A stretch of 54,386 nt of DNA, counting the filler, from Xylographa opegraphella (lineage: Eukaryota), in NCBI GenBank assembly GCA_022813865.1. It is 10 parts of 10 records of this genome, joined end to end, with 100 filler letters (N's around TTAATTAATTAA, not from the genome) between each part and the next. Parts side by side here need not be neighbours in the genome. Positions count along the whole stretch, not along the records: positions 1 to 5,545 come from JALDZX010000231.1; 9 more parts are not named here. One strand, 5' to 3'. A program made the position numbers and the translations under genes. The notes beneath the pieces are model-generated. The model saw nothing but the letters and a program-made list of their open reading frames with translations. It ran no database searches and was not told the origin of the DNA. Shown one piece after another: positions 1 through 54,386 of this stretch (its first letter is position 1; every line of letters starts with the position of its first letter).

Positions 1-84
1 GGCGCATGGGGTCGGGCCGTCTCACGACCGGGCGCTAGTCCCCTAGTGTCTTAGCCCTACCCTGTGAAGGTGAGAACCTTAACA
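1..84 (-). mobile_element. Partial LTR (family C-related) inserted in gypsy integrase
   Basis: Ends TACCCTGTGAAGGTGAGAACCTTAACA, identical to the end of the solo LTR at 48548-48906. Integrase-like codons resume at 85. Confidence 0.8.
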
Positions 85-1100
85 AGTACTCCATTATTAT
101 TCCCTTTAAAGAAACGTTTACAGCAGAACAGTTGATATTCCTCTTGTTAAACAGATTAATGAAAGATTATGATTTCTCAGCTGGAATTATTTCCGATAGA
201 AATAAATTGTTTACATTCAACTTTTGGAAGACTTTAATATTTAAACTAGGAGTTAAACTAAAAATATTAACAATTTATTATTTACAAATAGATAAACAAA
301 CTAAAAGAATAAACCAGAACTTGGAAGTATACCTACGACACTTTATAAATTTAAAATAAAATAATTAAGTATTATTATTGCCTTTAAAACAACTGGCACT
401 AAATGAAAAGCAATCTGCGACCACAGCACTGTCGCCTTTTTTCGCAAATTCAGGACGTTATTCTTAATTATTTAAAAACAAGAGATCAGGGCCTAATGCA
501 AACAAAGTAATAATATTAGCTAAAGATTTGAAGACGACGCATAAGGCGTTATTCAAGAAAATTAAATAAAATAACGAAAAGATCGCCGCAACAAGGTATA
601 AAAATAGCAAGAATAAATTTTAGTTAAAAAAAGGGGATAAAGTATACCTTCTTACGAAAAACTTAACAATCAGTAAGAAACAGAGCAAGAAGCTTAATTA
701 TGTCAAAATCGGACCATTCTTAATCAAGCAAGTCAGAGGACCAGTTAATTACCTTCTCGACCTGCCCAAAGATGCGAAAGTACACCCAGTGTTCTATGTA
801 TCCTTATTAGAACCTGCGGACGCCAGTACTCCAGTATAAACAACCTTTCGATATAAAAAAGAAGAAGAACAGAAATTCGAGGTAGAAAGAATCCTGGACA
901 AGCAAGGTCAGAAATACTTGGTCAAATGGAAGGGTTACCCAGAATCGGATAATACTTGGGAACCACTTACTAGCCTTGGGAATTGCCGGGAACTTTTTCA
1001 ACAGTATTACCAAGCAGAGCAAGAATCTCAGAAGAGGAAGCTTTCAAAGCCCCAGGAGGAAGAAAGGAAGGAGAGAGGGCCCCGTAGGAACCGCTGGTAA
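85..1100 (+). pseudogene. Degenerate Ty3/gypsy (chromovirus) pol 3' end: integrase core and chromodomain
   Basis: IISDRNKLFTFNFWKTL integrase motif, GPF..., VHPVFYVSLL, chromodomain [30 protein letters not shown]. Several TAA stops. Confidence 0.9.
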
Positions 1101-1482
1101 AGGCTTCCGCCTCTTGACGTTTATCATCTTCCAGGGCTTCGATGTTAAACATTTCGCGTTAAAATATTTCCCGTTCCTCGTCCTTAACATCCAAAAGCCG
1201 ACGTTTCTCTCGGCCTAGAGCCTTTCTTAATTTAACCACGCGACGTTTTATTTTATTCTTTCATTTCTTTAAATCTTGACGGTCGGTTTTGGTAATAATT
1301 AGAAAACATTGAGCTTTAACCGCTACGCAGTTCACGCAGAATTCGAACTTCGAAGAAATCGTATAGAAAAAATATTTCTTAATATAATAATTATAAAGGT
1401 GCATTGTGAATTTTCCTTTGTCGTGAATACTATACGACTGAACCTTTCGGCGATAAACGCTGATCAATTTGTGTTTTGGCAT
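970..1482 (-). pseudogene. Antisense accessory ORF of the gypsy element, Zn2Cys6-like cluster plus coiled coil, RIP-damaged
   Basis: ORFs 1261-1482 and 970-1152 share a frame. YNYY-x6-Y-x8-CVNC-x6-C gives C-x2-C-x6-C-x8-C-x2-C-x6-C if three TAT codons were TGT. A charged helical segment follows. Confidence 0.6.
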
Positions 1483-1538
1483 GATGCAGAGAAGCTGCTG
1501 GAATTCTTTCCGAGCAAGAATCTGGCGGGGGGAGCTAG

Positions 1539-2090
1539 TAATAAGGTTTTAACCAATGTTGTATGGAACAAGGATCGGGGGAATCTTATTTCGACTGCCT
1601 CCTCTGCCTCTGTAGGAGGCATAGGAGAAATGACTTCTAGAGCCTCGGTGGCCTTCTCGGGAGGCATAAAAGGCATTTCAAAATAGGATTTTTATATAGA
1701 GCGGAGGATTTCCTTACTGTAAAAGGCGTGTTCAACTTATGCTATAATCTTAGAATAGTAGGCTTCAATACAAACCTCTTGTTGTGACGGCTATGACATC
1801 AGTCACAAGTAATAGGGGTCGGGCTGGATCAGGACTAGCACCTTTAGTATATAGTCTCGCCCATGGAGCAGCCTCATCGCTTCTCCATCTTAATCTGGGT
1901 TGAAATCGTCCACCTAAAGCTTACGTTCTAGGCGTGCTTGCGTGGTGAGTTGATGAGCCATAACACTTGTACGAAAACTATTAGTTTTGTAAGAATTATT
2001 AAACTGTTACTGTGCCTTTCTATTCATTCATTGACGAATCAAACCCAGATCCTTAATCGAACTTTACTAGTAAGAAACAGGATCGTAACA
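1539..2090 (+). mobile_element. 3' LTR of the gypsy element (family C-related), interrupted by a solo LTR
   Basis: Purine tract GGGGGGAG at ~1527-1534, then TAATAAGGTTTTAACC (cf. TGTTAAGGTTCTCACC). 1690-2090 aligns with the reverse complement of 48548-48775 and ends GATCGTAACA. About 364 bp without the insert. Confidence 0.75.
1783..1965 (+). mobile_element. Solo LTR, family A (183 bp)
   Basis: TG...CA termini, 5-bp TSD CTTGT, multiple near-identical copies in the window. Confidence 0.92.
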
Positions 2091-4233
2091 ATGCTATTAT
2101 TTTATCGGCTAGAATAGTCACTTTATAAAATCTTTAAATAATATTGGGGTTAAAATAAGCAAAACGACGATGTCAAAGGTCGTAATTCTTTTATATAAAG
2201 CTTGTTGAGGGGCTTGTGGAAACCATAGGTATCGTATTAAGGTTGTTTAAACTCCCAGGTATTACATCTAAAAGGTCGGCATTATTAAAACTCTCGGCAT
2301 CCATGGCTGCATTGTTATTACCGAATTAACACATCTGATTATAAACATTTAAAACGAATTCTTGATTAATGATTTTGTATACCTAGTTAATTATATACAC
2401 TCCCCCAAGCTTCGTGGCTTTAATCATCGTTCGGCCAGAAAAAATCTTTATTTTTAAAGTATTTTTTATTAAAGCTCCCTTCAAGACCTCCCCTGCATAG
2501 CTTTATCCCTGACAGAAGATTTATATTAAAACCAGGGACATAGTAGACCCATAACAAAATAAGACGACTTCCATTGTCGGCTTTTAACACTGTCTCCCTT
2601 ATTTTATTAGTATATAGTTTTCCTTCTCCGACCTTTATCGTCCGGCGAAGAACTAATGTCAAGGCGCTGCTAAATAGTTAAAGATTGTTGATTATATAAT
2701 ATAATGCCCCGGAGTTCGCAATTTATTTTAAATAAAGAATTTTACTGGCCGCGTCGCGAGAAACAGCAGCAACCTCGACATTTTTATTGTCGTCGGCATC
2801 ACTGCCATTTAGGTCCCCCTCGCTAGTATCTGACTCAGCGTCGTAAGTATGTCGCTTCTTCTTATTTTTATGATAGCGATGAGGTGTACGCTCGCGGGAC
2901 TTCTTGACGGGTTTTCGCTGACTTGATCTTGAAAGCTCTCGTTTAGCATAGCTCTGGGCATTCGATAGGAATGGGCATGCCACCACGTAGTGGGTCGCAT
3001 CCTTGCAGATAAAGCATTTGGTCCTGGGTAAGTCACTATCGCTTCCTGATGATTGACTACGTCGCGATTTTGAACGCTTCTGGGGTTGCGAGCGGCGTTC
3101 GTCCTTTTAAGTAATTAGGAATTTCGACTGTTTTGCTGCCATTGCTTGCTTAGACCTTTTGAGTTCATCTTTTTTATCGCGTAGCATTCGGAGCCTGTCT
3201 TCGACGGTGATGTTTATCAGGGTTCGAATATTATCGCGTATAATGGTGTATTTATATAAAAGACCGCGAAGAAGAATTTGAAATAGCTCTTCGTTTTTAA
3301 ATACAATCTTTATAGCCGGTAGGGCCTTAATCACTTTGCTGCGTATTCGTTTTAGATCAACCCATGCTTCATTAATTGTTTTTCCATTTTGAACCTTATA
3401 TGTCGTAAGCTCGTTGAGTGAAGTACTTCCTACTGAGGAATAAATATCGAAGTATTTGCCTTTAAGGTGCTCCCATATCTTTTTTGCCGTTTTTATGCCT
3501 AGTATGTCCTTTTTATCGAACTCCCCCAGTCCCCCACGAACGATGACCTTCGCTTTAGCGTTTTCCTGCTTCCATTTTTGTTCCTTCTCGATATTTAGAG
3601 TCTGTTTAGGGAACTAAGAGGATGTATCGCGATTTTCGTCTGATGGGGTTAATACGTTTAAAGATGAAGATGTTGAAGCATCGATAGTAAAAAGTTTTTA
3701 AAACTAAGCAATCAGGCAGTACGACTTTCTAGTAGTGGTAAGTATATATTCGATGCCATTTGAATTAAGGATATTTTCGACCTGAATAAACCATGACGTG
3801 TAATTATCGCGGGCGAGCTGAGGTAGTAGCGGAAACCTGTCCTGGCTATTCTAATAGGCCATTGTAAAAGCAAAAAAAAATTAAAAGAATCGAATGTGTT
3901 GAAGAAAAAATAGTTTATTGCGTTTGTAGCAAGCTACCCTTTCTGCTTGTTGTTCTATAGGTATCAAGCTGCTCTGGTACTCGTTATTCTATTGATATCG
4001 AGCTGCCCGTTCTCTCCTTATATAAATAAACCAGTCCTTTAGGTCACCTTCCAACAGCTACAGCACGCGTAAATCGTTCGAATTACTGCTAAGCGTTACG
4101 CTGATCTCTAGGAGGTATTCACTATTCTGCCTCGTTCGCTCGAGGGTACGGCCGCGTGAATATTAGCGGTAATAAAACCTATTCTGCTGGATCTAACGTT
4201 TATTACTACCTAGGCTAACCCGGGTTTATAACC
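2091..4233 (-). pseudogene. Degenerate Ty1/copia gag-protease-pre-integrase, cut by the gypsy insertion
   Basis: LPQLARDNYTSW gag start, zinc-knuckle remnant (C..C...HYVVAC), YVPGFNINLLS protease C-terminus, HRRFA-like pre-integrase motif near 2150-2175. PBS GGTTATAAACCC resembles the fungal copia GGTTATGAGCCC. Confidence 0.85.
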
Positions 4234-6526: not shown

Positions 6527-6710
6527 TGTTACGGCTCATCAACTCACCACACAAGCACGCCTAGAACGTAAGCTTTAGGTGGACGATTTCAACCCAGATT
6601 AAGATGGAGAAGCGGTGAAGGCTGCTCCATGGGCAAGACTATATACTAAAGGTGCTAGTCCTGATCCAGCCCGACCCCTATTTCTTGTGACTGATGTCAT
6701 AATCGTCACA
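6527..6710 (-). mobile_element. Solo LTR, family A
   Basis: TG...CA, TSD GTATT. Confidence 0.92.
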
Positions 6711-10092: not shown

Positions 10093-11187
10093 TCAGTCTT
10101 TGTCGTAGCGTCCTCTGCTGACTGAAGAACTCCCACTGCTTGACATACCTAGAAGCCTCATGAACTGACTATGCTTGGTGGGATTCAGAAGCTTAGTTAG
10201 TCCGTCCGCGGCCATATCTTCTGTAGGCACATAGGTCACCTTGATCCGGTTTTGCTTAGCCAAGTCCCGAATATGATGATACATGACATCGATGTGCTTT
10301 GACCTTTCATGAAGATGCGGGTTCTGGGTTAATGCTAGGGAACCCTGGTTGTCCCCTCTAAGGTCCCCGCAGTATGGGTTCCGCCCTAAGTACTGAGGGT
10401 ATCCTGACTCACGGAGGAGCTGGGTTAGCCATTGCGCCTGGCGAGCTCCCACTGACAATCCAACGTACTCGGCTTCCGTAGTTGAGGTAGATACCGACTT
10501 TTGCTTCCGGCTTGCCCAGGACACGGGACCTCCTGCCATCTTGAAAACGTACCCGAATGTTGACTTCCGATCCTGCTTATCGTCGGCGTAGGCTGCGTCG
10601 GTAAAGCCGTGAAGATTTCTTTCTTCTTCCGGTTCTGGTCCAAAGGTTATTCCAACGTCAGCGGTGCTTCGCATGTACCTTAACAGATGTTTGGCCCCCA
10701 TCAGGTGGTGCTCAGCTGGATCGCTCATGAATTGACTCAATTTACCAAGAGCAAAGGCAATGTCTGGGCGGGTATAAACTTGAGCATGCATTAGACTTCC
10801 GATAAGCTTCTGGTATTCTTTTACGTTTACCCTTTTGTCGTCAGGATTTGCCGGGCGTAGATATTCTTCGCTGTTAAGAGGAACTTTGGTGGGCTTGTGC
10901 TTGTCGGTCACCATACCAACGGATTCCAATACCTTTTGGATATAGCGGCTTTGACTAAGCTTGATGGTACGCAGCTTGCGGTCGCGGGTGACTTCTATGC
11001 CTAGGATCTTCCGAATCTCCCCCAGGTCCTTGATCTTGAAGACACCAGCCATCTCAGTTTTGAACCACCTAATTTGCTCGGTAGTCTTGGCGGCGATACC
11101 CATATCATCGACGTAAAGTAGCAACAGGATTCCGCGTTCCCTGTGAAGTAGCAGACACGGGTCGACATGGCTTTGAACGAAACCCAT
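10093..11187 (-). CDS. Ty1/copia pol, reverse transcriptase C-half and RNase H (5'-truncated by contig end), uninterrupted
   Basis: LLYVDD, IKDLGE..ILGIEV, TRPDIAFA, GFTDAAYADD, SWASRKQKSVSTSTTEAEY, DNQGS, SKHIDVMYH, ADGLTK. Confidence 0.96.
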   Translation of the reverse strand: MGFVQSHVDPCLLLHRERGILLLLYVDDMGIAAKTTEQIRWFKTEMAGVFKIKDLGEIRKILGIEVTRDRKLRTIKLSQSRYIQKVLESVGMVTDKHKPTKVPLNSEEYLRPANPDDKRVNVKEYQKLIGSLMHAQVYTRPDIAFALGKLSQFMSDPAEHHLMGAKHLLRYMRSTADVGITFGPEPEEERNLHGFTDAAYADDKQDRKSTFGYVFKMAGGPVSWASRKQKSVSTSTTEAEYVGLSVGARQAQWLTQLLRESGYPQYLGRNPYCGDLRGDNQGSLALTQNPHLHERSKHIDVMYHHIRDLAKQNRIKVTYVPTEDMAADGLTKLLNPTKHSQFMRLLGMSSSGSSSVSRGRYDKD

Positions 11188-11287
11188 NNNNNNNNNNNNN
11201 NNNNNNNNNNNNNNNNNNNNNNNNNNNNNNNTTAATTAATTAANNNNNNNNNNNNNNNNNNNNNNNNNNNNNNNNNNNNNNNNNNNN

Positions 11288-16368: not shown

Positions 16369-16796
16369 GGAGTTTTCCCGGGTTAATGCACGGCCCGATG
16401 CCAATGCACACCCCCGCGCCGAAACCCTACCCTGATATAAATCGAATATCTTCATCAATATGAACTCAATTGAGGCCGCGCTGGCAGATTTAGATCTGCA
16501 GAACACCCCCAATTATACTGCTACTGCGCTAAAGTACAATGTGACTCGTACTACGCTGGCACGACGTCATAAAGGCATAACGGCCGCAAAAGAGGTCCTT
16601 CCGCATAATAATCAATTGCTCAGCATCGAACAGCTCAATGGCCTTGTTAAGTACATTAATGAGCTTACCGATCGTGGCTTACCACCTACGAATGCTATGG
16701 TCCGTACATTTGCACGTAATATATGTGGAAATTGGCCAGGCAAAAACTGGGTTTATGAATTCGTAAAATCCAAGAAGAACAACCTCAAATCAGGGT
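16369..16796 (+). mobile_element. pogo/Fot1-like DNA transposon 5' end with transposase N-terminus (CDS from 16460)
   Basis: Starts right after TA. MNSIEAALADL...YNVTRTTLARRHKG (HTH) and INELTDRGLPPT...GKNWVYEF (CENP-B-type HTH). Cut by the contig end. Confidence 0.88.
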
Positions 16797-16896
16797 NNNN
16801 NNNNNNNNNNNNNNNNNNNNNNNNNNNNNNNNNNNNNNNNTTAATTAATTAANNNNNNNNNNNNNNNNNNNNNNNNNNNNNNNNNNNNNNNNNNNN

Positions 16897-16955: not shown

Positions 16956-17532
16956 CAATTTTAAATTATAACGCGGCTGGGGTTTTAATTTTTATATTAT
17001 ATTAAAAAATACGTTAAAACTTACTTTAATTATTTTAATTATTTTAAATTTCAAAGCTCAGAAATCAACGACGATAATAAAAAAAAAGAAAAAGATAACA
17101 AGTTTTAATATTATATTTCTAGCGATTTTAATATTAATATCGCGATAATGTATTAAACCCTAAGCGAGTTTTATTAAATATTATGTTTACGCACATAAAT
17201 TGCACCACGAATACTACGAATTAAAATTTAATTTATTTACTAAATATAAATTTCGATTCGATTATTAAATTTATTTATTAACAATTTTATTATTATGCGT
17301 GGCTGTAAGACAATAAAATAATCAAAATAATAATGATTCAAAAAGTGGCTAAATCGCCGAGAGTGGCTGGAGACCCGCCCCCCACGAAGCGAAGCGGAGT
17401 GGGTTTTTAACCGACGGATAATGCGCCCCGTCTAAGGAACTGAGGCAACCTTCGTACTTGTTACACAACTGCAATCAGACTTTAGGGGCTCAAACATAAG
17501 AGCTGTCATGCTTTTGATTCAAATAATTGCTC

Positions 17533-18996
17533 ATGAGCACCATCAATTTGTATGCCGAGCTCTTGAGAAACATACAACAAGTGACCGTCGTCGCTACTTT
17601 GCCTTCGGAGCAAGACGGTACAACTGTGTTCGAGCTATCTCCGGACAAAGTGACTCTAACCTTGAAACACGGCAGCCAGCATGCTACTATCGTTCTTCCT
17701 GGAGTAATTGACGCTTCGAAGATCTTGGAGATTCCGAGATCGACGGATAAGTCCATATTCCTACGTCTGCAAGCGTCGCCAGATGTCGAATCGGCTGCCG
17801 CTCATGAATATCGCACCTCAAGCAAGGTTCCCTGGAGCGCGAGTTCCTTAAGTGCTCATACACGGATTGCTTGTAACTCCTGTGGGGCTGTGATCGTTGA
17901 TGGCACTGTGAGAACCTGGAAAGACCTCCCAAGTGAAAACTGGGCAGAGATGATGGATTTTTGGCACTGTCATAAACCCAGCAACGATAGCCGCCACTCT
18001 ATCAAATATTCTAAAGGCTACACGGCCGCTGACCGTATCCATACCAAGTCAGGCGTGGCGCTCGTAGATACTTGTCATGTTATAATATTTGCTGAAGACT
18101 GCAAAGGCATGAATGTAGGTCTATAATTGTTGCTCTCTTATTGTCAAGGCTTCTCGCGCTGTTCTTTTGCCCGCCAAAGGGCAGTCAGAAAGTGACTTGT
18201 TGCCACGGTTTCTCGTGGTTAATGACATGGTTACCGATACAAATGCCCAAGAATAAACACGCTTCAGCAATTGACTTGAACTCTGTTATCCTCTTTGGTT
18301 TCTCAACCATTAGATGGGTTTCTAGACTTGTCCTTGATGTGTCATGGCTGTGTTGCTGCAATTTTCGCCGTTGGACATTTGAGCATTCTGTCTTTGCGGG
18401 ATTCCTTGCTGTACAATAAACTTACAAGATATAGGATAGTAGCAGCAACAACCCAATCGTATCATGCATACATTGCCGGAAACCTCTCGGGCTCAAAGAC
18501 CCAATATTCGAAGGCGTTCGCTTAGACAAATGGAGTATTGCATTGGGGACTACAGATCACGCGGTGTGGGAACGCTATCCTGCCCAGGTTTTCGTTTCTG
18601 GCCAGCTTCTGGAGCTGCTAGACAGCCAAGGAACCAGAAAGTTTCTGGCTTATAGTGAGTCTCTAGCAGAGGCACGGGAGGGATTGCTTGTGAGATCAAT
18701 GTTGCTTAATGATTAATGGTCACTGATCGTTGTAGCTTTGGGTTTTCAATCCCGAAGTACGATATTCCACGTCCAAGAAGTTTCGGGTCTTTGCTCGTGC
18801 GATGAAGATATTGTACAGATTCATCAACAATCCACATTTAATTCTAGAGCAACACAGCTTGTCGTTTGAGGCACTGAAGCTCTCTCCATCTGTACTGAGC
18901 AAAATCCACGCAGACCTAGCCGATACCAATAGCCTTCTTCCTGAATCCGCACGAACTTTACAAGATTGGCAGGTGGGATTCTTAGATAGGTACTAA
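17533..18996 (+). CDS. Ubiquitin-conjugating enzyme E2-binding protein (HECT_2 family; Ipa1/UBE3D-like). Exons 17533-18114, 18435-18689, 18736-18996, ~365 aa
   Basis: LYAELLRNI, CNSC, WKDLPSENWAEMMDFWHCHKP, CIHC, LWVFNP, MKILY, LLPESAR..QDWQVGFL. GT-AG introns with branch sites keep the frame. Confidence 0.9.
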
Positions 18997-22355: not shown

Positions 22356-22415
22356 ATCGTCCACCTAAAGCTTACGTTCTAGGCGTGCTTGTGTGGTGAG
22401 TTGATGAGCCGTAAC
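22356..22415 (+). mobile_element. Partial LTR, family A
   Basis: Matches 1905-1964. Confidence 0.85.
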
Positions 22416-24519: not shown

Positions 24520-27500
24520 AAGGTAATATAGTTCGAAATATAAAAACATTTTTCAATCTCGTTATTTCGCGTATTTAAAATACGTTAAAATAAAAAGTTT
24601 ATATAAAATAATTGAAATTTTATAGCCAATCGTCGTTCTATAAAATATTAACGATACTTACGAAATTTATATTTTTTTAAAGTTTCGAAATCAAAGAAGT
24701 TACGCCGTAAATAAATATAAATTTCAAATTTTCGTTTTAATTTTAATTAACATATATAAACTCTTATTAATATTTCGTGAAAATTATTTTTATTTTTATT
24801 TTATCGTAAATGATTATTTAAAAAAAAATTTAAAAAAAAATAATTAAATTAAAGGTTAAACGCGATCGTCGAGTGAAATAAATAAAAATAAATCGTAAAG
24901 TTTTAATTTAAAATAAAATTTATAATAATTTATAATAATAACGTTTTTAACTTTAAATTTATTTTGAACGATTATGAGTAAAAAAAACTGTCGATCGAAA
25001 AACAAGGTGCTTAAACCATAGATAAATATACATTTAAAATTTTCGATTGAAACGAAACTTAAAAAGAAAGACAATCAGCTGTTTTCATGTAAGAAAAAGA
25101 ATACGAAACTCATCTTAATTCCAAGCGATTAAATTAGTACGAACAAAAACAACGAAAAGATTAATACGCAGAGAAACATTATTTAATATCAAGAAGACAG
25201 TCCTTGGGTGGAAATCAATAACAACGAAGAAAGCGATTTAAACATTAATAGCCTGCAAGTCGAGAGGGATCTCAAGGAACAAAATGTCGAGCTAAACAAT
25301 CTCGATAATTAAATTTACAAAAAAACTGACGAGCAAAAAAAGCCGAAGGATACGGTAAATAATTACTAAAATTATCGAGTAAATCCAGAATATTCACGTT
25401 ACGATATAATACACTGTGGCACTTGTACAGGCATTTACTGTGTGACGGCTATGACATCAGTCACAGGTGATAGGGGTCGGGCTGGATCAGGACTCGCACC
25501 TTTAGTATATAGTCTCGCCCATGGAGCAGCCTCGCCGCTTCTCCATCTTAATCTGGGTTGAAATCGTCCACCTAAAGCTTACGTTCTAGGCGTGCTTGTG
25601 TGGTGAGTTGATGAGCCGTAACATACTGCAAAGTTCACTGAAAAAATCATGAGTACAACGGCCGCACAGGTAAAGCCTGTTATAAAATTTAAATTTGGAA
25701 CAGATGCTTCAAAAACGAATGCCCATGGCATTTAAAAGAAAAACGAAGGCATTTATCCTTTTTAGAATATATACAAGAATTCTGCAACAACTTAATTACG
25801 TACGGAACCCGTTTAGAAAAAAACAACTTCAGAAACCCGTTATGGCAATGGTATTTCCATGGAGAATATATAATATACATAGAGATCAAAGAAATTCACG
25901 GCTATCTCGAACAGGGAAAAAGTAATGTTATATATTATAGAAAAATATATAAAGATTAATATAATACACTTCAAGATACACCGGAAGAAGCCAGACTGTA
26001 TAAATTTTATAAAGATTTCAATTATTATAAATAATTATCGAACAACCGCGTTATTAGATATTAAAGCCAATTCAAATTATATGTTCAGCATTTTCGCGAA
26101 GAGCTGCGGCTTCGAATTATTAACTTTAAAATAGGTTCAAATGATCATGGCCGACGGGTCATCAAGGAAGGAAGAAGAACGATATATAAAATCACTTCCT
26201 GTCGCTATTCATTAATATCATAAAGAGATAGTTTTTGGTATAGTTACCATGGCCAGGTACCATATTATTTTAGGTTTATCTTGATGAATCAAGCACAACG
26301 TATCCCTAAACTGGGATAAAGGAGTATTTATCAAAAAGTATATCAATCGCGTTATTAATATATATTTTATACATCAACAGAGGACGATGATCAATAAAAG
26401 AAAGAATCGAAAACCGGTTAAAATTATAAAAATCTTATTTTCGAATAAAAACGATTTTACTCGAGAGTTCGACTTGACACGCATTAGCAAGGGTTAGTAA
26501 AACAAAATAAATTAAAGTTTGAAAAGAAGCGACGCACCTCTTGACATCCCTAAAGAATATAAAGCATGGATATGGCTTTTTCAGGAAAAGGAAGGATTTA
26601 ATACTTTATTTAAACATCAACCTTGGGACTGTGAGATCAATATCGAATCAGGGAAGAAGCCAACATTTGAATTTATATACAACATGTTAGAAAAAGAACT
26701 TCAGGATCTTCATAAATATATTGATAAAAGTCTGAAAAAGGGATTCATACGCGAATCAAAATCCTCAGCACAATATTCAGTAATATTTATATTTAAAAAA
26801 AACGAAAGCTTGAGACCTTGCATCGAATATCGGAAGTTAAACGATATTATTATTAAAAATCGATATTCACTACCGAAAATTAGCGAAATACAGAATAAAT
26901 TTAATAAAGTCAAAGTTTTTATTAAGCTCGACCTTAAAGGCGCATACAATTTAATCAGAATAAAAGAAAATAAGGAATAAAAAACTGTATTTCGAAGCAG
27001 ATATAGGCACTACGAGTATCAAGTTATACCTTTTGAATTAATTAACGCATTTATTATTTATTAGGCGCTGATCAACAACGTATTAAAAATGCATTTATAT
27101 TTAACGGTAATAATTTATTTGAACGACATATTTATTTACTCGGAATCAGCAGAGAAACATGTGAAATATGTACAGGAAGTACTTACATGCTTAGGAAAAA
27201 CAGAACTATTTCTTAAACAAGAAAAAGGCGAATTTAATAAAAACGAGATAGTCTTTCAAGAATTCATAATCGGCAAAAAAGAAATCAAGATGAATTTAGA
27301 AAAAATAAAAACTATACTCGAATGACCTTGACCAACAATAGCAAAAAAGGTCTTAAAATTCCTAGGGTTTGCAAACTTCAACTGAACTTTTATTAAAGAT
27401 TACTCCAAAAAGGCGATATCTTTAACGAATTTAACACATAAGAATATAAGCTTTAAATGGGATTCGAACTAATAACGAGCCTTTAACATTTTAAAAAAGA

Positions 27501-27788: not shown

Positions 27789-27857
27789 TATACTAAAGGT
27801 GCTAGTCCTGATCCAGCCCGACCCCTATTACTTGTGACTGATGTCATAGCCGACACA
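27789..27857 (-). mobile_element. Partial LTR, family A
   Basis: Matches ~6642-6710. Confidence 0.85.
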
Positions 27858-31544: not shown

Positions 31545-33114
31545 TTATCCCGAATCAGAGCTGTCATCGCCAGGGCTGTTCGAATCGTAGCTGTCTTCGG
31601 GGTCCTGGCTGCTGTCCTCACGTCGTATTAACGGAATGACTATCTTGAAGTTCGGGGATCCGTCCTCATCGTCGGTCTCACTCTCACTAAGATACTGCTC
31701 TTCCAGATCCGCCAGAATCGCCGCATATTCCTCTGCTGCTCCGTCTTTCCGCTCGACATGCAGCTTCAGCCTTCTCCCAGAGACGGTGCCGGACTTCTCT
31801 GCACCATCCAATTCTTGCAGACGATATACTCCCTTGACAGGATCCGCCTTGGTGATTCGGTACGGGCCTTGCCACCAGAAATCAAGCTTTCGGTCCGACG
31901 AATAGTCGTCCTTATACCTAGTATCGTGCAGAAGGACCAAGTCTCCCGCTTTGTATATCTTGTCCCTGGCATCTTTACTAACGTCGGAGTATTCTTTAGC
32001 TTGATCCCTTATCCTTCTAAGCCTCAAAGCTGCCTCCTCCAAGTCCAGATCTCTTTGCAATAGCTGCAGGGCTCTCAGCGCGAGCAGGTCGGCTGTATTT
32101 CGAACTCGACTCCAGGGTAGGCTGGTCCAACTAGGCACCTTGGCCTCGATCGGCAGCATACACACTCTTCCATAGATAAGCTGGAATGGGGTCATACCGG
32201 TGCTTCGGCGGATACTAGTTCGATCAGCCCATAGAACCAAATGTAATAGTTCTGGCCATGTGCCTATCCCTCCATGTGTCAGCTTCGCTAGCCCATCTAT
32301 AATAGGCTTGTGCCCTCTTTCTACCATGCCGTTCGCGCCCGGATTGTATGGGGAGGTCTGTATTCGCTCAATCCCATACAGTTTCAGCAGTGTCTCGGTA
32401 TACTTCTTGTTCTCTGGCCCTCCATCTAGAACCATCCTCCCAAAGAGCCCGTGGCGAGTAATAACGTCTTCCCACAAGAACTGCGCAACCGCCTTGGAAT
32501 CTGCGTTCTTGAGAGCCCTAGCTTCTACCCAGCCTGATAAATCTTCCCGGGCGACCACTATATAGCCCAACCCTCTTCTCCGCGGCATCTTGACCACGTC
32601 CACGGCCACCTTTTCGAACAATATCTGGCTATGCGTAGCGAAGATTGCATCCGGCTCCAACTGTGAAGACCTTCGCTGACAGTCTTCGCAGGATTTGCAG
32701 TAGGCCTTGCAGTCCTTATACAATCCTTCCCACCAGTATGTAGCGGCTACCCTTCGATATGTGGTTTCCACACCCTTGTGTGCTCCGCCTACATCATGCT
32801 GGCTGGCGACAATCTCCTGCTGAACTTCCTCTTTATCTACCACTCGTCGCAAAGGTATGTTCTTACTGCCCCGTCGAAACAACTCCCCATCTCTTACCAG
32901 GTATTTCAAGGCTTCCGCTTTGAACTTCGTCCACTGACGGCCCTTATACTGGGTCGGCTTCTTCAACGATGACAGCCATACAGCATATTCCTCATGGATC
33001 TCTGAATACCCAGAGTCCGGATTCAGGACAGTGACCCATGGTCCTTGGCTGTCGCCCTCTCCTTCCTGCCTTTCCTCAGTGGCCGCCACGATCAGACTCA
33101 AAGAATGCACCCCT
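31545..33114 (-). CDS. Ty3/gypsy pol C-terminus: integrase (HHCC + DDE + GPY), uninterrupted, 5'-truncated
   Basis: QHDVGGAHKG...CEDCQ, VAVDVV, VLDGGPEN, NGMVERGH, WQGPYRI. Acidic tail with no chromodomain. Confidence 0.95.
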
Positions 33115-33214
33115 NNNNNNNNNNNNNNNNNNNNNNNNNNNNNNNNNNNNNNNNNNNNTTAATTAATTAANNNNNNNNNNNNNNNNNNNNNNNNNNNNNN
33201 NNNNNNNNNNNNNN

Positions 33215-38615: not shown

Positions 38616-40716
38616 TCGAAATTCGCCTTTGATCAATTACCAGGTTCGCTGTAAATGCCCTAGAAATCGTTTCGGAATTTCGAAGATTATATTCGACCAA
38701 AGGGACTGCGCGCTGTGCCGTTTTAATATATAAACCCAGCTTTTTCTTAATAAAATTGAAGTACTTTAAATAAATAAAAGTTTCACCTCCTGCTTTCGTA
38801 TTCAATAATATCGTTATATTCGCAGCCAGTTCGTTGGCCGCCAGCTTGCAGTGAGTGTTAAATGCCGAACCTTTTAAAATATCGAATATTTTCAGCTTAT
38901 TAATTATAGCTCCTTTGGTAAACTTTAATACTAAGATTTCGTTTAAAATAATTCGTTTCCCAAGTTTGAATCGAATTGCTCGTGTTTCGAATCGACGTCT
39001 TTTGCTTCGATTTTAAATCTGTCGTTCTGAGTACAGTTTAAAGCATAATGGCTCATTTAATTGCACGCATAATACTTGATATTAGTTATAAAAGGTTTTA
39101 TTACAGGCTTGATTGCTTCGTACAGTATTCCTGCAGTAATTTGCTTTCTTTTCCACTTTTGAAGTCGAACGCTTTCCTTGAAACTGATTTTTTCTTACCT
39201 TTTCTTTTTTATTTACGCGGGCCTGTTCCCTAGCAAACTGCTGCGCCTTATTATAATAAACGTTGAAAGACGTATTGTTGTCGACTACGTAAATTTCCAT
39301 TTGAACCTGTAATTAATTGTATAATTTATTGTATGGTTTTTCCTTTTATTGATTCGTGCGTATTTTTACCGAATTTGCCAGGCGCAGAAAATCGGACTAA
39401 AATGTATTAAAGTCGTTTAAATACGCCATGCATAGTTCTTTTAACTGAGCTTTAGCCTTTAAGCGTCGGTTTAAATCTTCGAAAATATTTTTAAGGCACT
39501 GAATCATCGGTCCCACGTGAACGAGGCTGCCTGCTTTTTCTTGAGCCTTTAGCTATGGGTATAAATGCTTGACTGCCTTGCCGTTTAAACGCGTCTTGAT
39601 GTATACGATTTTTGCCTGCTCGACTTTTTTAAAATCTTTTTCGTTAAACTAATTATCGTTAATACGAAGCTTGCTTTTTATCTGATTGTTTTATACGCGA
39701 AAGATCGGCTTCATCCCGTCTTTAAGAATTAATAAAGTTAGAAATTTTGCGAAACGCTTGGCTTTGCCTTCTGCGTTACTAATAAATATATTTAATATTA
39801 ACTTTTTAGCTCGGGAACCGCGCGTTTCCGAACGAAATCGCTGTTCGATTATATTTTTATGCTGTAAAAGCTTTTTTTATAAGGCCACTTGGTCTGCTAG
39901 TAATCGTACTCTCTTTTGCTAATTTGTAGCCTTTTTTTATACCTCGCGGCACGTTTTCCCTCTAATTTAATCGCGTTTTCTAGTTCGGCAATTTGTTTCT
40001 TTAGCCGTTCGATGTATAACTGATTTTCGTATATTACTGCAAAAAGCTGCTGGCCCATTTTTTTAAAGTTCGTTTCAATTCGTATAAATGTTACGGCTCA
40101 TCAACTCACCACACAAGCACGCCTAGAACGTAAGCTTCAGGTGGACGATTTCAACCCAGATTAAGATGGAGAAGCGATGAGGCTGCTCCATGGGCAAGAC
40201 TATATACTCAAGGTGCTAGTCCTGATCCAGCCCGACCCCTATTACTTGTGACTGATGTCATAATCGTTACAATAAACACTTCCTTTAGTGTTCTGGGAGA
40301 ATCCGAGGCGCCTATGGCGTTTAAATCTGGGTATATTAATACTGTATCTTGCAGCGCCTGCAAGTCGGGAGTTTCTTCTGAGGTTGCTATTTTAATTCTA
40401 CGATACCGCAAACATTTACCCCTAATACGTGGTTATCCTATTCCAGGCCCTAGCTTTTTTAAATTCCACGGAGTCTCTTGCCTATTTTATATAAAGCTTT
40501 CTTTAATCTTTTGTCTACACTGCGTGCAGGGCTGTTATTTTGATTAATAATCGCTTAATAAGTCATAGAAGTCGTTTTAAGAACACTTTGATGTCGCGGT
40601 TGACTGTAAATAAAACGCTTAATAATATAAATAAAAACTGAATTCGTTTACACACTCGTTTGTCCAAGATATATTAATCACCTTCACAGATCGGGAACAA
40701 GTTAATATTATTCTAA
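38616..40716 (-). pseudogene. Degenerate Ty3/gypsy leader, gag and protease
   Basis: Gag-like KSKLRIND...IVYIKTRLNGKA...LKNIFED...AKAQLKEL...FNTF*SDFLRLA, and a protease-like segment near 38800. Preceded by a family D LTR. Confidence 0.75.
40089..40271 (-). mobile_element. Solo LTR, family A, inserted in gag
   Basis: TG...CA, TSD ATAAA. Confidence 0.93.
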
Positions 40717-46049: not shown

Positions 46050-47060
46050 CTATACCGTCTGAGTCGACTCCGCAACCTTCTCGCCCTTGTCCTTGACACT
46101 CGTTCCCACACCCTTTTTCTTCCCCTCACTACTCCGGCTCTCCAGATCGGCCGTGAAGCGTTTCCACAACTCGGCAACGTCCTCTTTTCTCTTGGCCGAC
46201 TTTTCCACCACGAGGTTGCGTAGCCATTTGTTCTCCATCTCCAGCTGCGTGATCCGTGCCTCTAGAGCGTCTGCCCGATCGGTCATCTCCTTGGCTGTCT
46301 TTTCGAGCGCTTGCTCGCGCTGCTTCTTCTTGACTCGGAACCGGGCAGACGCGGCAGTGTTGCGACGGCGCTTGTCTTCTTCAGCAGCAGCGCGGGATGA
46401 GGCTTCGAGAGAGGGAGAGGTCGGTGTCATGGAGGTTGCCGAGAATGGACGCTTGTCTCCCGTGTGAGGTGGCTGAGAAATACCGTAGGGCGAAGTTGGG
46501 TTGCCAAAGGCCGTAACATCGAACGGGGAAGGAGCGACATAGTTTGTGTCGAGAGGCTCTGGCAGTACAGTGGTTGGATCTGTAGCAACGAACGGAAGGT
46601 CTGGGAATTGATAGCCATCTGAAAAGAGCACATCAGCTTCAGTATCTGTATTATGCTCAATTCTCTCAGTGGCTGAGTATTCACAGCTTGTCATGGATCA
46701 AGATAAATCTGCGCGCCATGCCGCAAAGAATAGAAGTAATGATGGGCGCATGTTGGATTAGAAAAATGCATCGAAAGGAGAGCATGTGAAGCAGAGCGTA
46801 CACCCACCATTGCCATAATCTACAGCCTTCGTGTCATTATTCTTAGGAGCAGTTCCTTGTTTTGCAGGCTCTTCCAAGCTCGGATCGTAATTCTCCCCCA
46901 AATCAAAATCGAAGAACTCGGCATTGGTAAAGATTGCAAGGTCGTCATCGAGGGGAAAGCCATCCTGCCCGGTCGCAGTATCGTGGGCCGAGGGTATGGT
47001 GTTCAGATTGGCAATGTACTGGGAGACATTGGGAGCCTTCCTGGCACTGTAGCAAGACAT
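46050..47060 (-). CDS. metR: bZIP sulfur-metabolism transcription factor, CYS-3/MetR orthologue. Exons 47060-46808, 46618-46050, 273 aa
   Basis: SLEASSRAAAEEDKRRRNTAASARFRVKKKQREQALEKTAKEM...LEMENKWL matches the CYS-3 bZIP. N-terminal RKAPNVSQYIANLN. A 189-nt GT-AG intron keeps the frame. Confidence 0.92.
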
Positions 47061-48547: not shown

Positions 48548-48906
48548 TGTTACCGATCCTGCCTCTCACTAGTATAGTTCGATTAGGGATCTGGGTTGGA
48601 TTCGTCAATGAGTAGATANNNNNTCACGATGCAGTCTTAATGCTCCAGTCTAATAGTCTTCGTACAGTATTGTATTGAAGCCTAGTAGCCTAAGATCATA
48701 CATAACATGAGTTGAACACGCCCTTCTACAACATAGGAAATCCTCCACTCTATATAGAAGTCCTGTTCACGGGTGCCCTTCATGCCCTCCATGCCCTCAC
48801 ACAAGGGCATTAGTGACAACAGGGGCATCGGCTGGGGGAAGAGCCGATCCGGCCAAGCTATCCCCTCCCGGGCCTAGCTTACCCTGTGAAGGTGAGAACC
48901 TTAACA
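48548..48906 (-). mobile_element. Solo LTR, family C (359 bp)
   Basis: TGTTA...TAACA, TSD CAATG. Confidence 0.93.
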
Positions 48907-49132
48907 CAATGACAGGCAATATAATGCTATTTCTCTATGTACAGCTATGTATTTTAGACTAAAGAAGAAAAGAAAGAATGTGAAGAAGGACGAAATACTA
49001 ATAGCGCTCGAACCTCCCAATGAGGAATGGCGTAAGGTCTAGCGTGTTTATTGTGATATAAACAACGCGTTGTCGCGCCATGCTTTCACACCGTGCTGCT
49101 TACTAGCCCGAAATATCTTCGCACTTCAGCCT

Positions 49133-49261
49133 TGTGACGATTATGACATCAGTCACAAATAATAGGGGTCGGGCTGGATCAGGACTAGCACCTTGAATAT
49201 ATAGTCTTGCCCATGGAGCAGCCTCATCGCTTCTCCATCTTAATCTAGGTTGAAATCGTCC
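49133..49261 (+). mobile_element. Partial LTR, family A (contig end)
   Basis: Matches 1783-1911. Confidence 0.88.
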
Positions 49262-49361
49262 NNNNNNNNNNNNNNNNNNNNNNNNNNNNNNNNNNNNNNN
49301 NNNNNTTAATTAATTAANNNNNNNNNNNNNNNNNNNNNNNNNNNNNNNNNNNNNNNNNNNN

Positions 49362-50840
49362 CAGAGGAAGAGAAGGCCCTCGTTACGTTTCTGTTACTAA
49401 TGTCTGATCTTGGGCAACCTGTTCGAGTAAAGTACATACCTTCACTAGCCTTTAGCATCGCCCGCCAGCGGTCTTTCGTTACAACGGATCATTCAATCAA
49501 GCCTCCGAATAAGAACTGGCCTCGAGCCTTTGAGAAACGTAATCCTGAACTCAAAGCGAGAAAGGTTCGGGCGATAGATTGGAAACGTCACGAGAATAAC
49601 ATATATGTGAAAATTACACACTGGTTCGAAGTAATTGGAAGAATTATACAGGATCCGGCCATTCTGCAAGAAAATGTGTACAATATGGACGAGACGGGGG
49701 TCATGTTAAGCATGCTCGGTTCCGTCAAAGTCCTTGTAGGTAAGAACGACCTACGAGACTATAGAGGCGCAGGCGTCAAGCGGACGATGGTAACTGCCAT
49801 TGAATGTATAAGTGGAGACGGCAGGTCTTTGCTCCCTCTTATAATCTGGCCAGCTTCAACTCACCGCAGCAATTGGACGACATACCCAACCCCAGGATGG
49901 CATTACGCACATTCAGAAAACGGTTACAACAATTCCAAAATTAGCTTGGAATAGCTTACGCGTGTGTTTGATCCCCAAATCAAAGGACCAGCTAACCAGA
50001 GACCACGGGTACTAATTTACGACGGCTTCGAGACACACGAGACGCTCGAAATCTTGGAATTTTACTTTGCGAATAATATTCTCCTGTGTCGTCTCCCGTC
50101 TCATACCTCTCATAAGCTCCAGCTCTGTAATGTCGGAGTTTTTGCGCCTTTGAAGACAGCCTATTGCGACGAGGTTGAACAACTGTACCGAGGAGGTTTA
50201 GACACCGTTGGCAAGGAGCATTTCACCTTTTTATACAAGCCTGCAAGGGAAAGGTCGTTAACAAAGAGAAATATTATGGCCGAATGGCCGCGACTGGTTT
50301 TTCCCGTTCAATCCAGAGAGAGTACTCCGATATACACCGAAGCCCGCTGCTATACTTACAGTTCCAAAAGGTAATGAGGTCTTGTCTTACCCGCAAGACC
50401 AAGATCTACAAATGCCTGTAACCCCTGTAACGTCGGTAACAATAGAGGCTCTTACGTCGTTGCATAATCTGATTAAACAGGAGCTTGATGAGCCAAATAC
50501 AGACTGTATACAAAGGCACGTACAGAAGCTCGTAAGTGCCGCCAAAGTATTATTTGCCAAACAGACCCTCTTTTAGGATCAGAATCGATTCTTGTCCAAA
50601 TTAAATAATGAAGCCAAAGTTCGCCGATCGACCAGATCAGTAGTTCTGGGAAAGGCGAAGGTGATAAGCTATAAGAACCTTGAGGAGGCACGAGCGAAGC
50701 GTGCCGCAAAAGAGAAAGCGACAGCGGATAAGGGCAGGGGAAAACGCGGGCGTAAGCGCAAAAGTCCTGCGCCAGAGGAGGGTTCGTCAGTGCCAACGGA
50801 CAACGAAATGCTGGAGTCAGTGAAAGCCCCAGCGCCATAA
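49362..50840 (+). pseudogene. pogo-type DDE transposase, disrupted
   Basis: NKNWPRAF, NVYNMDETG, VTAIECIS, RVLIYDGFETH, LPSHTSHKLQLCNVGVFAPLK. Stops at 49952 and 50574, frameshift near 50285. Confidence 0.92.
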
Positions 50841-52405: not shown

Positions 52406-54386
52406 ATGGCTGATCCCTCCAGGCCAGGGAATCAATACCAACACATTCGGATCGATCAAGGCGGGAAAGCTCAACTGGGCGACACGTATATTCTCCGTGA
52501 GCTTTCGCATCCCATCCGAGAAGTGATATCTGCTGACATACGCACGTCTCCTTGATCAGCGGCTCCAGCCCCTCCGTTACCTCCATCCTATCGACTTGGC
52601 TTAAATCTTGAAGATGCGCCGCAGATTGACGAGCAGCTCTTCGTCGGACGAGAGGACGAGCTTGCTCATCTACACGAATGGTTGTCTCCGTCAACGGAAC
52701 GACAGAATGTGGTGGCCATCTCGGGACTCGGAGGGATGGGTAAAACACAGCTTAGTCTGCACTTTGCGCGACAACACCATCAACGCTATTCGGCTGTGAT
52801 CTGGCTGAATGCCAGCAGCGAAGTCACGCTAAAGGCGGCATACATGTCTCTCGCGCAGCGCATCCAACGCCACAACAAGCAACGCGAGGCTGGACAGAGC
52901 GAGGTGATAGTGCAATTGAAGGAAGAGCAGGCTATCCAACTGGTTCGACAGTGGCTGTCACAAGCGGAGAATAAGACGTGGTTGTTGATGTTCGATAATT
53001 ACGATGATCCACGGCTTCCTGGCATTCGCAGCAGCACTGGATACGACATTCGCATTTTTTTTCCCTACTCCACCCAAGGATCGATCCTGCTCACAACCCG
53101 ATCTTCTCGCATTACCTTTGCGAAGTCGGGACGCCTTAACAAGTTCGATGACCTCAATCTGAGTCTGGCAGTTCTAACAAGGCGATCGGGTCGACAGGCA
53201 CACGAAGGTAAGTGTATATGGTCACTGGGGATCAATACCGACCTTGTATCTAACGACCTCTGTTGCTTAACCCAGATATAAATGCGAAGAAACTGGCGGA
53301 ACGGTTTGACGGACTTCCATTAGCGTTGGCCACGGCGGGCGACTATATCCGTCAGACGGCGGATTCGTTCGGTGAATACCTTCAAATGTACGAGCAGAGC
53401 TGGGCAGACCTGGCCGAGAACAGTGATAACTTGATGGAGTACGGCGATCGAACGCTGTATTCGACATGGAATCTATCGCTAAAGCAGGTCGCCGCTCAAG
53501 ATCCTGAAGCGGCAAAGCTGGTTCGGCTGATGGGGTATCTGGGCAACACGGATCTGTGGTATGAGCTGTTTCAGAAGGGTGCAGAATCCGCGCCGGAGTG
53601 GTTCTGCAACATCACGAAAAGCAAAGCGCGATTCAATAAAGCAATGGCGACACTGCACGGTTATTCATTGATTGAAGCGATGCCAGGTCACTACAGTCTT
53701 CACGCGTGCGTGCATGACTGGGTTTTGGAGTATCTGATCGGCAAGATCGATATAACGCTATTTGGCTTAGCGATGCATTGTGTTGCGCAGAATGTTGCTT
53801 GGGATACTACGCCCGAATACTGGGTGGTCAACAGCCGTTTAAACCATCACGCTCTTCGAATCGAGCATTGTCATCAAAGGGACGTTGTCGATTGGAACAT
53901 TGTCGATATGGACGATATTTTTAATATAGGTTATTTGAATTATATGATCGGGAGACTGAAAGAAGCGAAGGAGATGTATGTGCGGGCGCTGGAAGGATAC
54001 GAGAAGGCATGGGGTGCGGAGCACACATCGACGCTGAGCATGGTCCACAACCTGGGGAATCTCTACGCGGATCAAGGCAAGATGGCCGAGGCGGAGAAGA
54101 TGTACATGCGGGCGCTGGAAGGAAAGGAGAAGGCATGGGGTGCGGAGCACACATCGACGCTGAGCACGGTCCACAACCTGGGGAATCTCTACGCGGATCA
54201 AGGCAAGATGGCCGAGGCGGAGAAGATGTACATGCGGGCGCTGGAAGGAAAGGAGAAGGCATGGGGTGCGGAGCACACATCGACGCTAGAGACGGTCAAC
54301 AACCTGGGGAATCTCTACAAGAATCAAGGCAAGATGGCCGAGGCGGAGAAGATGTACATGCGGGCGCTGGAAGGAAAGGAGAAGGC
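52406..54386 (+). CDS. Fungal NLR: N-terminal amyloid motif, NB-ARC, TPR repeats. Exons 52406-52496, 52560-53207, 53276->54386 (3' end outside the window)
   Basis: FVGREDEL, P-loop GLGGMGKTQL, Walker B LLMFDNYD, ILLTTR, GLPLAL, LHACVHDW, 42-aa TPRs. Two phase-1 GT-AG introns with branch sites give a continuous frame. Confidence 0.93.
53950..54386 (+). repeat. Near-identical 126-bp TPR-coding tandem repeats
   Basis: GAGAAGGCATGGGGTGCGGAGCACACATCGACGCT recurs at 54001, 54127 and 54253. Confidence 0.96.

Follow-up and report, generated by a model that had tools for sequence, protein, structure and literature searches.

A putative antisense accessory gene with a Zn2Cys6-like domain, decayed by repeat-induced point mutation, in a chromovirus remnant of Xylographa opegraphella

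What is a largely open reading frame doing on the minus strand of a fungal retrotransposon? Antisense accessory genes are familiar from plant Tat/Retand elements and a few retroviruses, and fungal Ty3/gypsy elements are usually drawn as gag plus pol. The question is raised by a stretch of 54,386 nucleotides from Xylographa opegraphella (assembly GCA_022813865.1), made of ten parts joined end to end and called the window here at its full length. Close to its start lies the degraded remnant of a chromovirus. Between the pol gene of this element and its 3' long terminal repeat (LTR), the minus strand holds a frame of 171 codons, stop included, that runs from 1482 to 970, starts with MPK and terminates with TAG at 970-972. 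The initial annotation had described a minus-strand frame of 171 codons with two stops that overlaps the tail of pol, and rereading the sequence gives exactly this, with the overlap at 970-1100. The interpretation favored here, to which we assign a probability of about 0.72, is that 970-1482 is a pseudogene, killed by repeat-induced point mutation (RIP), of a genuine antisense accessory gene of fungal chromoviruses. The encoded protein would contain a domain of the Zn2Cys6 fold and would possibly take part in the regulation of its own element.

The frame is interrupted twice, by TGA at codon 74 (1261-1263, minus strand) and by TAA at codon 108 (1159-1161, minus strand). The remaining five frames of 970-1482 contain 4, 9, 10, 13, and 13 stops. 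The frame with only 4 is the codon-aligned sense frame, which is open from 1309 to 1686 and stands out from the 9-13 stops of the other four. This openness is probably a mirror effect of the codon usage of the antisense gene and not a second gene. Codons 30-59 of the antisense frame (1306-1395) make up a candidate zinc-binding region. Three Cys codons are intact there (C49, TGC at 1336-1338; C52, TGC at 1327-1329; C59, TGT at 1306-1308), and TAT codons occupy positions 30 (1393-1395), 33 (1384-1386), and 40 (1363-1365). If TAT is allowed to stand for Cys, the six positions are spaced 2-6-8-2-6. A search of all six frames of the 54-kb window for Cys or TAT at Zn2Cys6 spacing, without a stop, finds this one instance, and the expectation is 0.015 per window (mean of 200 block-wise dinucleotide shuffles).

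Are there proteins in which this region is intact? Word-based protein searches failed to find any. The frame of 170 residues gave 43 candidates, none of them at E<=1, and an open reading frame (ORF) of 73 residues gave no candidate. The family was recovered only when HMMER compared the 170-residue frame (X at both stops) exhaustively with 1.84 billion representative proteins. Six proteins of 119-185 residues match the whole antisense frame, with E-values from 4e-20 to 5.6e-5. The best is P0121 (E 4e-20, 44% identity), residues 1-177 of which align with residues 1-168 of the window frame. It is followed by P0122 (5.5e-9), P0123 (1.5e-6), P0124 (1.5e-5), P0125 (4.2e-5), and P0126 (5.6e-5). In the reverse direction, tblastn with P0121 matches the window from 1482 to 979 at E 1.5e-30.

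Four of the six homologues are intact and cover the site, and every one of them has the pattern CX2CX6CX8CX2CX6C: P0121 (PCDRCIEKGLVC...CASCMESKSSC), P0123 (PCNNCVRLGRQC...CSSCVAGGRKC), P0124 (PCDRCKENGLKC...CAYCIRAKARC), and P0125 (PCDRCISLAKEC...CADCVESHASC). The initial annotation had proposed GAL4-type spacing on the assumption that three TAT codons were once TGT. The homologues bear this out, as Y30, Y33, and Y40 (at the positions of family Cys 1, 2, and 3) and also C49, C52, and C59 all align with Cys in the four proteins. The six Cys are invariant across the domain alignment (A3). The premature stops likewise face sense codons, with R in P0121 and P0122 and E in three others at codon 74, and A, D, or S at codon 108. 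Common features extend over the whole length. The proteins share the MPK start with a basic patch, LIIT..DR behind the sixth Cys, an extended charged stretch, the RE-MFNIE-LEEDER motif (RE-F-NIE-LEEDER) and a tail ending in ...PGSSQG. In the window the motif reads RE-MFNIEALEDDKRQ and lies at 1114-1158. In P0122, Tyr stands in place of four of the six Cys, and the composition is rich in Lys, Ile, Phe, and Asn. This protein looks like another RIP-mutated copy, and hence a copy of a repeat. A protein language-model look-up, useful as a lead only, places P0121 next to three unannotated clusters (62-210 members, mostly Ascomycota) with scores of 0.94-0.95. Taken at the level of sequence, the antisense frame is the remnant of a real, conserved gene family.

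How did the window copy come to differ from its family? Three or more intact homologues agree in 56 columns; the window has the shared residue in 29 of these and departs from it in 27. No fewer than 15 of the 27 departures are undone by T>C or A>G reversions alone, and one by changes in the opposite direction. With shuffled targets the figure is 5.9 +/- 2.0, and 15 is not attained in any of 2000 shuffles. For example, HLYNYY in the window becomes the family HPCDRC by transitions only. The rest of the element tells the same story. Transitions account for 458 of the 531 places at which genomic copies differ, and in the pol tail TAA or TAG stands in place of conserved Gln or Trp and TAT stands for conserved His five times. 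This substitution pattern is the signature of RIP. The window as a whole alternates between AT-rich blocks (GC 15-25%) and remnants of transposons. To judge by its reading frames the window copy is dead, with three predicted zinc ligands turned into Tyr (TGT>TAT), two stops, and a pol that is broken too.

What if RIP made the pattern instead of destroying it? In this scenario a frame happened to stay open in the spacer between pol and the polypurine tract, and RIP-mutated DNA rich in TAT gave rise to a spurious Zn2Cys6 spacing. The window frame does lack matches in Pfam and in two word-based searches, five TAT codons fall within the 12 codons upstream of the real Cys triad, and the mirror frame (+0) is also low in stops. 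Furthermore, TAT codons of the pol tail align with Cys in none of nine cases and with His in five. However, a chance frame does not account for six full-length homologues, the best at E 4e-20, with all six Cys in place, or for departures from the family consensus that are directional and of the RIP type. The pattern itself is expected only 0.015 times per window. Six proteins at 25-44% identity cannot be artefactual translations of one repeat. A chance origin of the frame was rejected on the strength of the exhaustive search and the Cys alignment, and it has almost no prospect of being correct.

If the frame is the remnant of a gene, what kind of element carried it? The pol tail at 63-1100 (plus strand) is a RIP-degraded Ty3/gypsy sequence with six internal stops, made up of the integrase C-terminus, SH3_Tf2-1, and a chromodomain. 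Pfam detects SH3_Tf2-1 (E 1.1e-14) followed by Chromo (E 2.2e-14). A pol that ends in an SH3-like integrase C-terminal domain and a chromodomain identifies the element, by its domain order, as a chromovirus, as the initial annotation had called it. Its relatives number 182 full-length proteins at E<=1e-10 (from 2324 candidates), of which the best is P0001 with 53% identity. RVT_1, RNase H, rve, and Chromo domains are present in these relatives, among the matches listed. Few have named sources and those are all Dothideomycetes (Cercospora kikuchii, Cryoendolithus antarcticus, Hortaea werneckii, and Aureobasidium pullulans). One relative, P0008, is a fungal-type chromovirus pol (53% identity to that of the window) with the source label uncultured cyanobacterium (Leptolyngbya), which is probably a mis-binned or contaminating eukaryotic contig.

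The end of pol sets the limits of the region that concerns us. It was placed with an alignment of 38 of the first 40 relatives; P0014 and P0018, the tails of which run on aberrantly, were left out. The natural end is at 1098-1100, and the 38 intact homologues stop there too, 15-45 residues past the chromodomain. Because pol homologues end so soon after this domain, 1101-1556 is a spacer before the 3' LTR. It also follows from the natural pol end that the overlap between pol and the antisense frame is 970-1100. Within these 131 bases both strands would be coding, and the antisense gene and pol would face each other with their final 43 codons.

The 3' LTR is inferred at 1557-2090 (plus strand), from TGTTG to GTAACA, and measures about 346 bp once an insertion is subtracted. 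A G-rich run, GGCGGGGGGAG, at 1525-1535 (plus strand) is a candidate polypurine tract, assigned by position only. The 5' edge of the LTR is uncertain. Contigs of this organism break off at 1531-1541, and their depth suggests that repeated sequence may begin at about 1461. A loose end of another copy is found in these contigs at 1714. The terminus ...GTAACA at 2090 is the same as the end of a related solo LTR at 48548-48906 (minus strand; TGTTAAGG...GGTAACA), which has TG..CA ends and a target duplication of CATTG. The two LTR types have their 3' two-thirds in common, including a TATA palindrome, and differ in the first ~100 bases. An LTR of the solo type also truncates the chromovirus. The terminal 84 bases of its 5' end, in the opposite orientation (1-84, minus strand), interrupt the element at about 85, and 58-84 is identical to 48880-48906. 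The 5' LTR of the chromovirus falls outside the window. A 7-bp inverted repeat in the solo LTR (ATCGGCT-N8-AGCCGAT) is within chance by a rough count, and Rfam gave no match in 1700-2100.

Does the gene belong to the element? Perhaps the family is one of ordinary host genes, and the chromovirus picked up a copy or lies next to one by coincidence. The look-alike Atlas clusters near P0121 would suit this idea, as they are plain "hypothetical protein" entries of Ascomycota. Against it, contigs from the same organism (runs X1-X3) hold other copies that are continuous with pol across 764-1306 and 1071-1531 and that differ by substitutions only. One copy over 1071-1531 has 63 differences and no gap, and 1281-1440 is covered by about 2.5-3.3 copy-equivalents. 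In other words, at least one other genomic copy has the same junction with pol. The RIP-mutated appearance of P0122 argues in the same direction by pointing to a repeat.

A further clue comes from a codon-compatibility test, which recovers the pol/antisense overlap of the window when used as a positive control. The tail of P0123 (AFPIAHETVAEAPGSSQGS plus stop) can share its DNA with the pol tail of P0001 (RNLANCRELLQQFHERSEK), in the register of the window, for 19 consecutive codons. This is not what a host gene would lead one to expect. In the controls 40 shuffled P0123 tails reach a maximum of 11 (mean 8.7), and the remaining pol tails of the 120 all stay below 11. The effect is not universal. 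None of the pairs formed by the six proteins and 120 pol tails is compatible over the full overlap, and the local compatible runs of P0121, P0122, P0124, P0125, and P0126 are not above shuffled controls.

Distant chromoviruses provide the next link. They were represented by 80 loci on metagenome contigs with 27-66% identity in the pol tail. The closest, L001 (66%), is the only close relative, and its contig ends inside the chromodomain. Direct comparison was negative, as neither the window frame (by tblastn) nor the spacer and LTR (by blastn) had a match in the 80 loci, and a scan of viral contigs for related DNA found none. The Cys motif itself was then informative. In the first 1500 nt beyond the pol match, the minus strand contains 51 occurrences of CX2CX6C and the plus strand none. 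At 43 loci the contig continues for 1 kb or more past pol. An antisense CX2CX6C lies 200-1500 nt downstream at 28 of these loci, 14 contain a pair, and the motif is absent from the sense strand at all 43. An ordinary host gene would not be expected to sit at a fixed distance from pol in this way, and on the whole a host origin is improbable.

The full six-Cys pattern is present in 2 of 2300 ORFs of at least 50 residues from the 80 loci, and both are antisense and just downstream of pol (L002 and L004). Many other loci have a first triad (...NPCERCVCAGQNCLVHPSR) followed by a stop, with the second triad some 110-125 nt further on in another frame. Could an intron lie between them? In 7 of 12 such loci (L007, L025, L027, L033, L040, L058, and L059) a predicted intron of 48-60 nt, GT[AG]AGT...YAG, restores the frame and gives CX2CX6CX10CX2CX6C. 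All are on the minus strand, 600-1000 nt after pol, and the predicted intron falls precisely between Cys 3 and Cys 4 of the zinc cluster. Intron status would differ by lineage, with no intron in some and a predicted intron within the zinc cluster in others. An antisense intron can survive retrotransposition because it is not removed from the sense genomic RNA. As for the six homologues, 21 of their 22 weak tblastn matches to the loci are on the minus strand. Many fungal chromoviruses seem to carry a gene on the opposite strand that is apparently undescribed. At the level of ORFs, its position between pol and the 3' LTR is conserved among elements.

Is the six-Cys region a zinc cluster of the GAL4 type? 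The class spacing CX2CX6CX5-12CX2CX6-8C fits P0121, P0123, P0124, P0125, and the antisense ORFs of L002 and L004. Zn_clus is the one Pfam family that recurs, always below its threshold, and it does so in these same six sequences. The window copy keeps three of the six ligand Cys and has TAT for the other three. An AlphaFold2 model of P0121, built from the six-sequence alignment, has a mean predicted local distance difference test score (pLDDT) of 78.4. GAL4-type domains consist of two short helices, each begun by a Cys pair, around a two-metal cluster; in the model each CxxC is followed by a short helix, and a single long helix spans 65-141 with pLDDT above 90. Foldseek returned 28 matches to the full model at E<=10 among 350,542 chains of the PDB, none at E<=0.001, and the matches listed are Zn2Cys6 DNA-binding domains plus one GntR regulator. 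A model of the domain only, made without metal atoms, has a pLDDT of 79.2. Under the same limits all 27 of its matches are Zn2Cys6 proteins (Pho7, HAP1, GAL4, Leu3, PPR1, PUT3, LAC9, AlcR, and Cep3), with Pho7 best at E 0.07 and probability 0.98. An aligner independent of Foldseek (VIA) ranks PPR1, GAL4, HAP1, and Pho7 first among 48,161 representative chains, with Z of 2.0-3.7 (PPR1 at the top with 3.7). Spacing and predicted fold make the domain Zn2Cys6-like.

The part of the protein that follows may mediate self-association. The long-helix segment corresponds to codons ~65-125 of the window frame (1108-1290, minus strand) and contains the conserved motif described above. The initial annotation had seen a coiled-coil-like segment after the cysteines, and the long helix of the P0121 model agrees with it. 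A two-copy model of homologue residues 24-145 with four zinc ions scored 0.51, and the best of three controls scored 0.20. The same mark is reached by 21 of 30 proteins solved as one-chain pairs and by 0 of 23 solved as single chains, although these benchmark counts are only rough with ligand present. At least 76% of contacts agree between the two-copy runs, and partner pLDDT is at least 81. Both the long helix and its self-association are predicted features. The predicted contacts (78 with 110 and 92 with 96) would bring the long helices together in antiparallel fashion.

How might such a gene have worked? In intact elements it would lie between pol and the 3' LTR, with its 3' end overlapping the end of pol. 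The intact protein of about 170 residues would begin with MPK and a basic patch and continue with a CX2CX6CX8CX2CX6C domain of the Zn2Cys6 (GAL4-type) fold. Behind this domain a short linker (LIIT..DR) would lead to a long helix that self-associates, and the RE-F-NIE-LEEDER motif and an acidic hydrophobic tail would complete the chain. In live elements the protein would be made from an antisense transcript that starts in or beside the 3' LTR. It might then bind DNA as a dimer and regulate transcription of the element, either as an activator or as a repressor. The initial annotation had proposed a DNA-binding regulator or anti-silencing factor driven from the 3' LTR; its structural reading is borne out by the homologues, and the function may be of that kind. 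The copy in the window would have been killed by RIP-type C:G>T:A mutation.

The start codon (1480-1482) is about 45 nt from the G-run and 75 nt from the placed edge of the LTR, so the promoter would sit LTR-ward. A TATA element at 1691-1700 can be read on both strands, as TCTATATAAA in the minus direction and as TATATAG in the plus direction. Other copies have this element as well, and so does the solo LTR, with the palindrome at 48750-48757. The initial annotation had taken the sites at ~1691-1700 and ~48749 to be antisense TATA boxes. Both sites are present, but the core CTATATAG is palindromic and so reads as a TATA box on both strands.

Several observations weigh against the proposal of an antisense Zn2Cys6 regulator, in whole or in part. 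To begin with the promoter, the TATA element could serve equally as the ordinary sense TATA box of U3, and three out-of-frame ATGs (1676, 1667, and 1622) lie between it and the start codon in this mutated copy. The domain assignment was to be checked, according to the initial annotation, with the Pfam profile Zn_clus (PF00172), the gathering threshold of which (21 bits) is never reached. The best score is 18.2 bits (L004), with 17.3 for P0125, 14.1 for P0124, 13.8 for the L002 antisense ORF, 11.5 for P0121, and 8.4 for P0123. The window's own antisense frame has no match in Pfam at all. As the scores are below threshold, the domain is not filed as a member of Zn_clus. A profile search of PDB sequences found no Zn2Cys6 chain. 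In the structural comparisons the score of the Pho7 match is weak and the VIA Z values are low, although low values are expected because the module has only about 35 residues. The stretch between Cys 2 and Cys 3 also seems poorer in basic residues than the GAL4-type consensus. Zn2Cys6 domains recognize CGG half-sites as dimers and bind two zinc ions; no spacing of CGG pairs is enriched LTR-ward of the gene at 26 loci. GAL4-type dimers are parallel coiled coils, unlike the antiparallel arrangement predicted here. The remaining points concern the family as a whole. The best hmmsearch E-value between the window family and the locus ORFs is 0.047, and an hhalign comparison of A2 with A5 extends over 25 columns at E 0.0082 and 4.8% probability, so this link is weak. 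Finally, the place of the six homologues inside chromoviruses is a presumed one.

Perhaps, then, the gene is a real one of the element, but the six-Cys module is a zinc-stabilized platform for binding protein or RNA and not the domain of a DNA-binding factor. Possible roles for such a module include particle assembly, nuclear import, integration targeting, and defence against host silencing. The sub-threshold Zn_clus scores, the loop between Cys 2 and Cys 3 that is poor in basic residues, the unenriched CGG pairs, the antiparallel dimer, and the low structural Z would all be at home in this alternative. What it leaves out is that the domain model retrieves only Zn2Cys6 DNA-binding folds, that a basic patch precedes the cluster, and that the order of zinc cluster, linker, and dimerizing helix is that of the GAL4, PPR1, and PUT3 DNA-binding regions. 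We consider a module of this other kind unlikely. The RIP-killed antisense gene with a Zn2Cys6 fold is still the preferred explanation of 970-1482.

How far can that explanation be extended? In a bolder version, widely separated lineages of fungal chromoviruses each encode their own minimal, antisense GAL4-like factor. The 3' LTR would drive its expression, and as a dimer on the LTR it would turn transcription of the element on or off. Mobile copies may even have seeded some of the large families of Zn2Cys6 factors in the hosts. The idea is speculative and we are inclined to doubt it.

The rest of the window contains a variety of other elements. The insertion in the 3' LTR is a 183-bp element at 1783-1965 (plus strand), flanked by a 5-bp duplication, CTTGT, at 1778-1782 and 1966-1970. 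It has TG...CA ends (TGTGACG...CCGTAACA). Further copies are at 6527-6710 (minus strand), 25441-25623 (plus), 40079-40275 (minus), and 49132-49261 (plus, cut by N), with fragments at 22356-22415 and 27789-27857. Four full copies were checked and each has its own 5-bp target duplication (CTTGT, TTTAT, TACTG, and AATAC). The copies are 94-98% alike and free of RIP mutation amid heavily mutated DNA. Their summed contig depth is about 1000 times that of single-copy pieces, a depth that is not a copy number. There is no Rfam match to the element. It looks like a solo LTR, derived from a very small LTR element and short enough to escape RIP. Two N runs are masked or unresolved bases, one inside the solo LTR (48618-48622) and one that cuts a copy of the 183-bp element (49260-49300).

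A second Ty3/gypsy element is represented by an uninterrupted frame of 537 codons at 31548-33158 (minus strand) with Integrase_H2C2 and rve domains, in an island of ~50% GC between blocks of 15-20% GC. It is a different and apparently unmutated element, with only 23% identity to the integrase of the chromovirus family. Other transposon remnants are a copia gag (3110-3613, minus strand), copia reverse transcriptase and RNase H (10096-11235, minus), a Tc5/pogo-type helix-turn-helix (16436-16849, plus), a gypsy reverse transcriptase (26516-26977, plus), and a DDE_1 transposase over two frames (49310-50371, plus). Host-like genes lie between them and encode HECT_2 (17527-18123), bZIP (46053-46697), and NB-ARC/NACHT NTPase (52556-53278) proteins.

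What would follow if the proposal is true? Fungal chromoviruses would own a regulator, and some of the "hypothetical proteins" and "antisense lncRNAs" (long non-coding RNAs) that overlie fungal retrotransposons would be explained. The intron-bearing loci would be a clean natural case of a retrotransposon intron retained through antisense placement. The question would also arise of whether mobile copies fed the expansion of fungal zinc-cluster factors. Lastly, the case shows that real genes can be recovered from decayed repeats when RIP mutations are read backwards.

The most obvious comparison is with the fungus-specific Zn(II)2Cys6 binuclear-cluster domains of the transcription factors GAL4, PPR1, PUT3, HAP1, Leu3, and Pho7 (PF00172). 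The predicted protein resembles them in its Cys spacing, the helix after CxxC, the linker, and the self-associating helix. However, it has only about 170 residues and is without the fungal-specific middle homology region. It also differs in being carried by a retrotransposon in antisense orientation, in scoring below threshold in Pfam, and in the antiparallel form of its predicted dimer.

A second comparison is with HBZ of human T-cell leukemia virus 1 (HTLV-1), a retrovirus of people. HBZ is an antisense bZIP factor for which transcription from the 3' LTR has been demonstrated. Both would be small, dimerizing regulators of the DNA-binding type encoded on the minus strand beside the 3' LTR, although for the fungal protein these properties are predicted. 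The difference is that HBZ has a bZIP domain and the fungal protein a zinc cluster, and that 3' LTR transcription is only inferred in the fungal case.

Among fungi, the Ty3/mdg4 elements of Blumeria hordei give rise to antisense polyadenylated and partly spliced transcripts that have been annotated as lncRNAs (PMC10648671). Those transcripts were filtered for lack of coding potential, and the passages on them do not mention a zinc-cluster ORF. The word "antisense" is absent from a survey of fungal LTR elements (PMC3248453). Full-text searches found no description of a zinc-cluster ORF in fungal retrotransposons, in a collection without most subscription journals and Repbase notes, and an earlier mention elsewhere may exist.

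The closest parallel in layout is with the antisense ORFs of plant Tat/Retand elements (PMD and Tr28/TRP28), some of which have a coiled coil and are suspected of DNA binding (PMC4408406 and PMC11963269). The plant ORFs too are conserved within lineages, and they occupy the same place, downstream of pol and before the 3' LTR in antisense orientation. In contrast, the plant elements are not chromoviruses and their domains are unrelated, whereas the present case is a fungal chromovirus with a Zn2Cys6-like domain, a spacer of ~450 bp, and a 131-base overlap with pol. PMD, Tr28/TRP28, and bZIP were absent from Pfam scans of the six homologues and four locus ORFs. By these domain comparisons, the relation to the plant antisense ORFs and to HBZ is one of arrangement, an analogy and not homology. 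If the bolder version of the proposal is true, the gene would be a fungal counterpart of HBZ or Tas.

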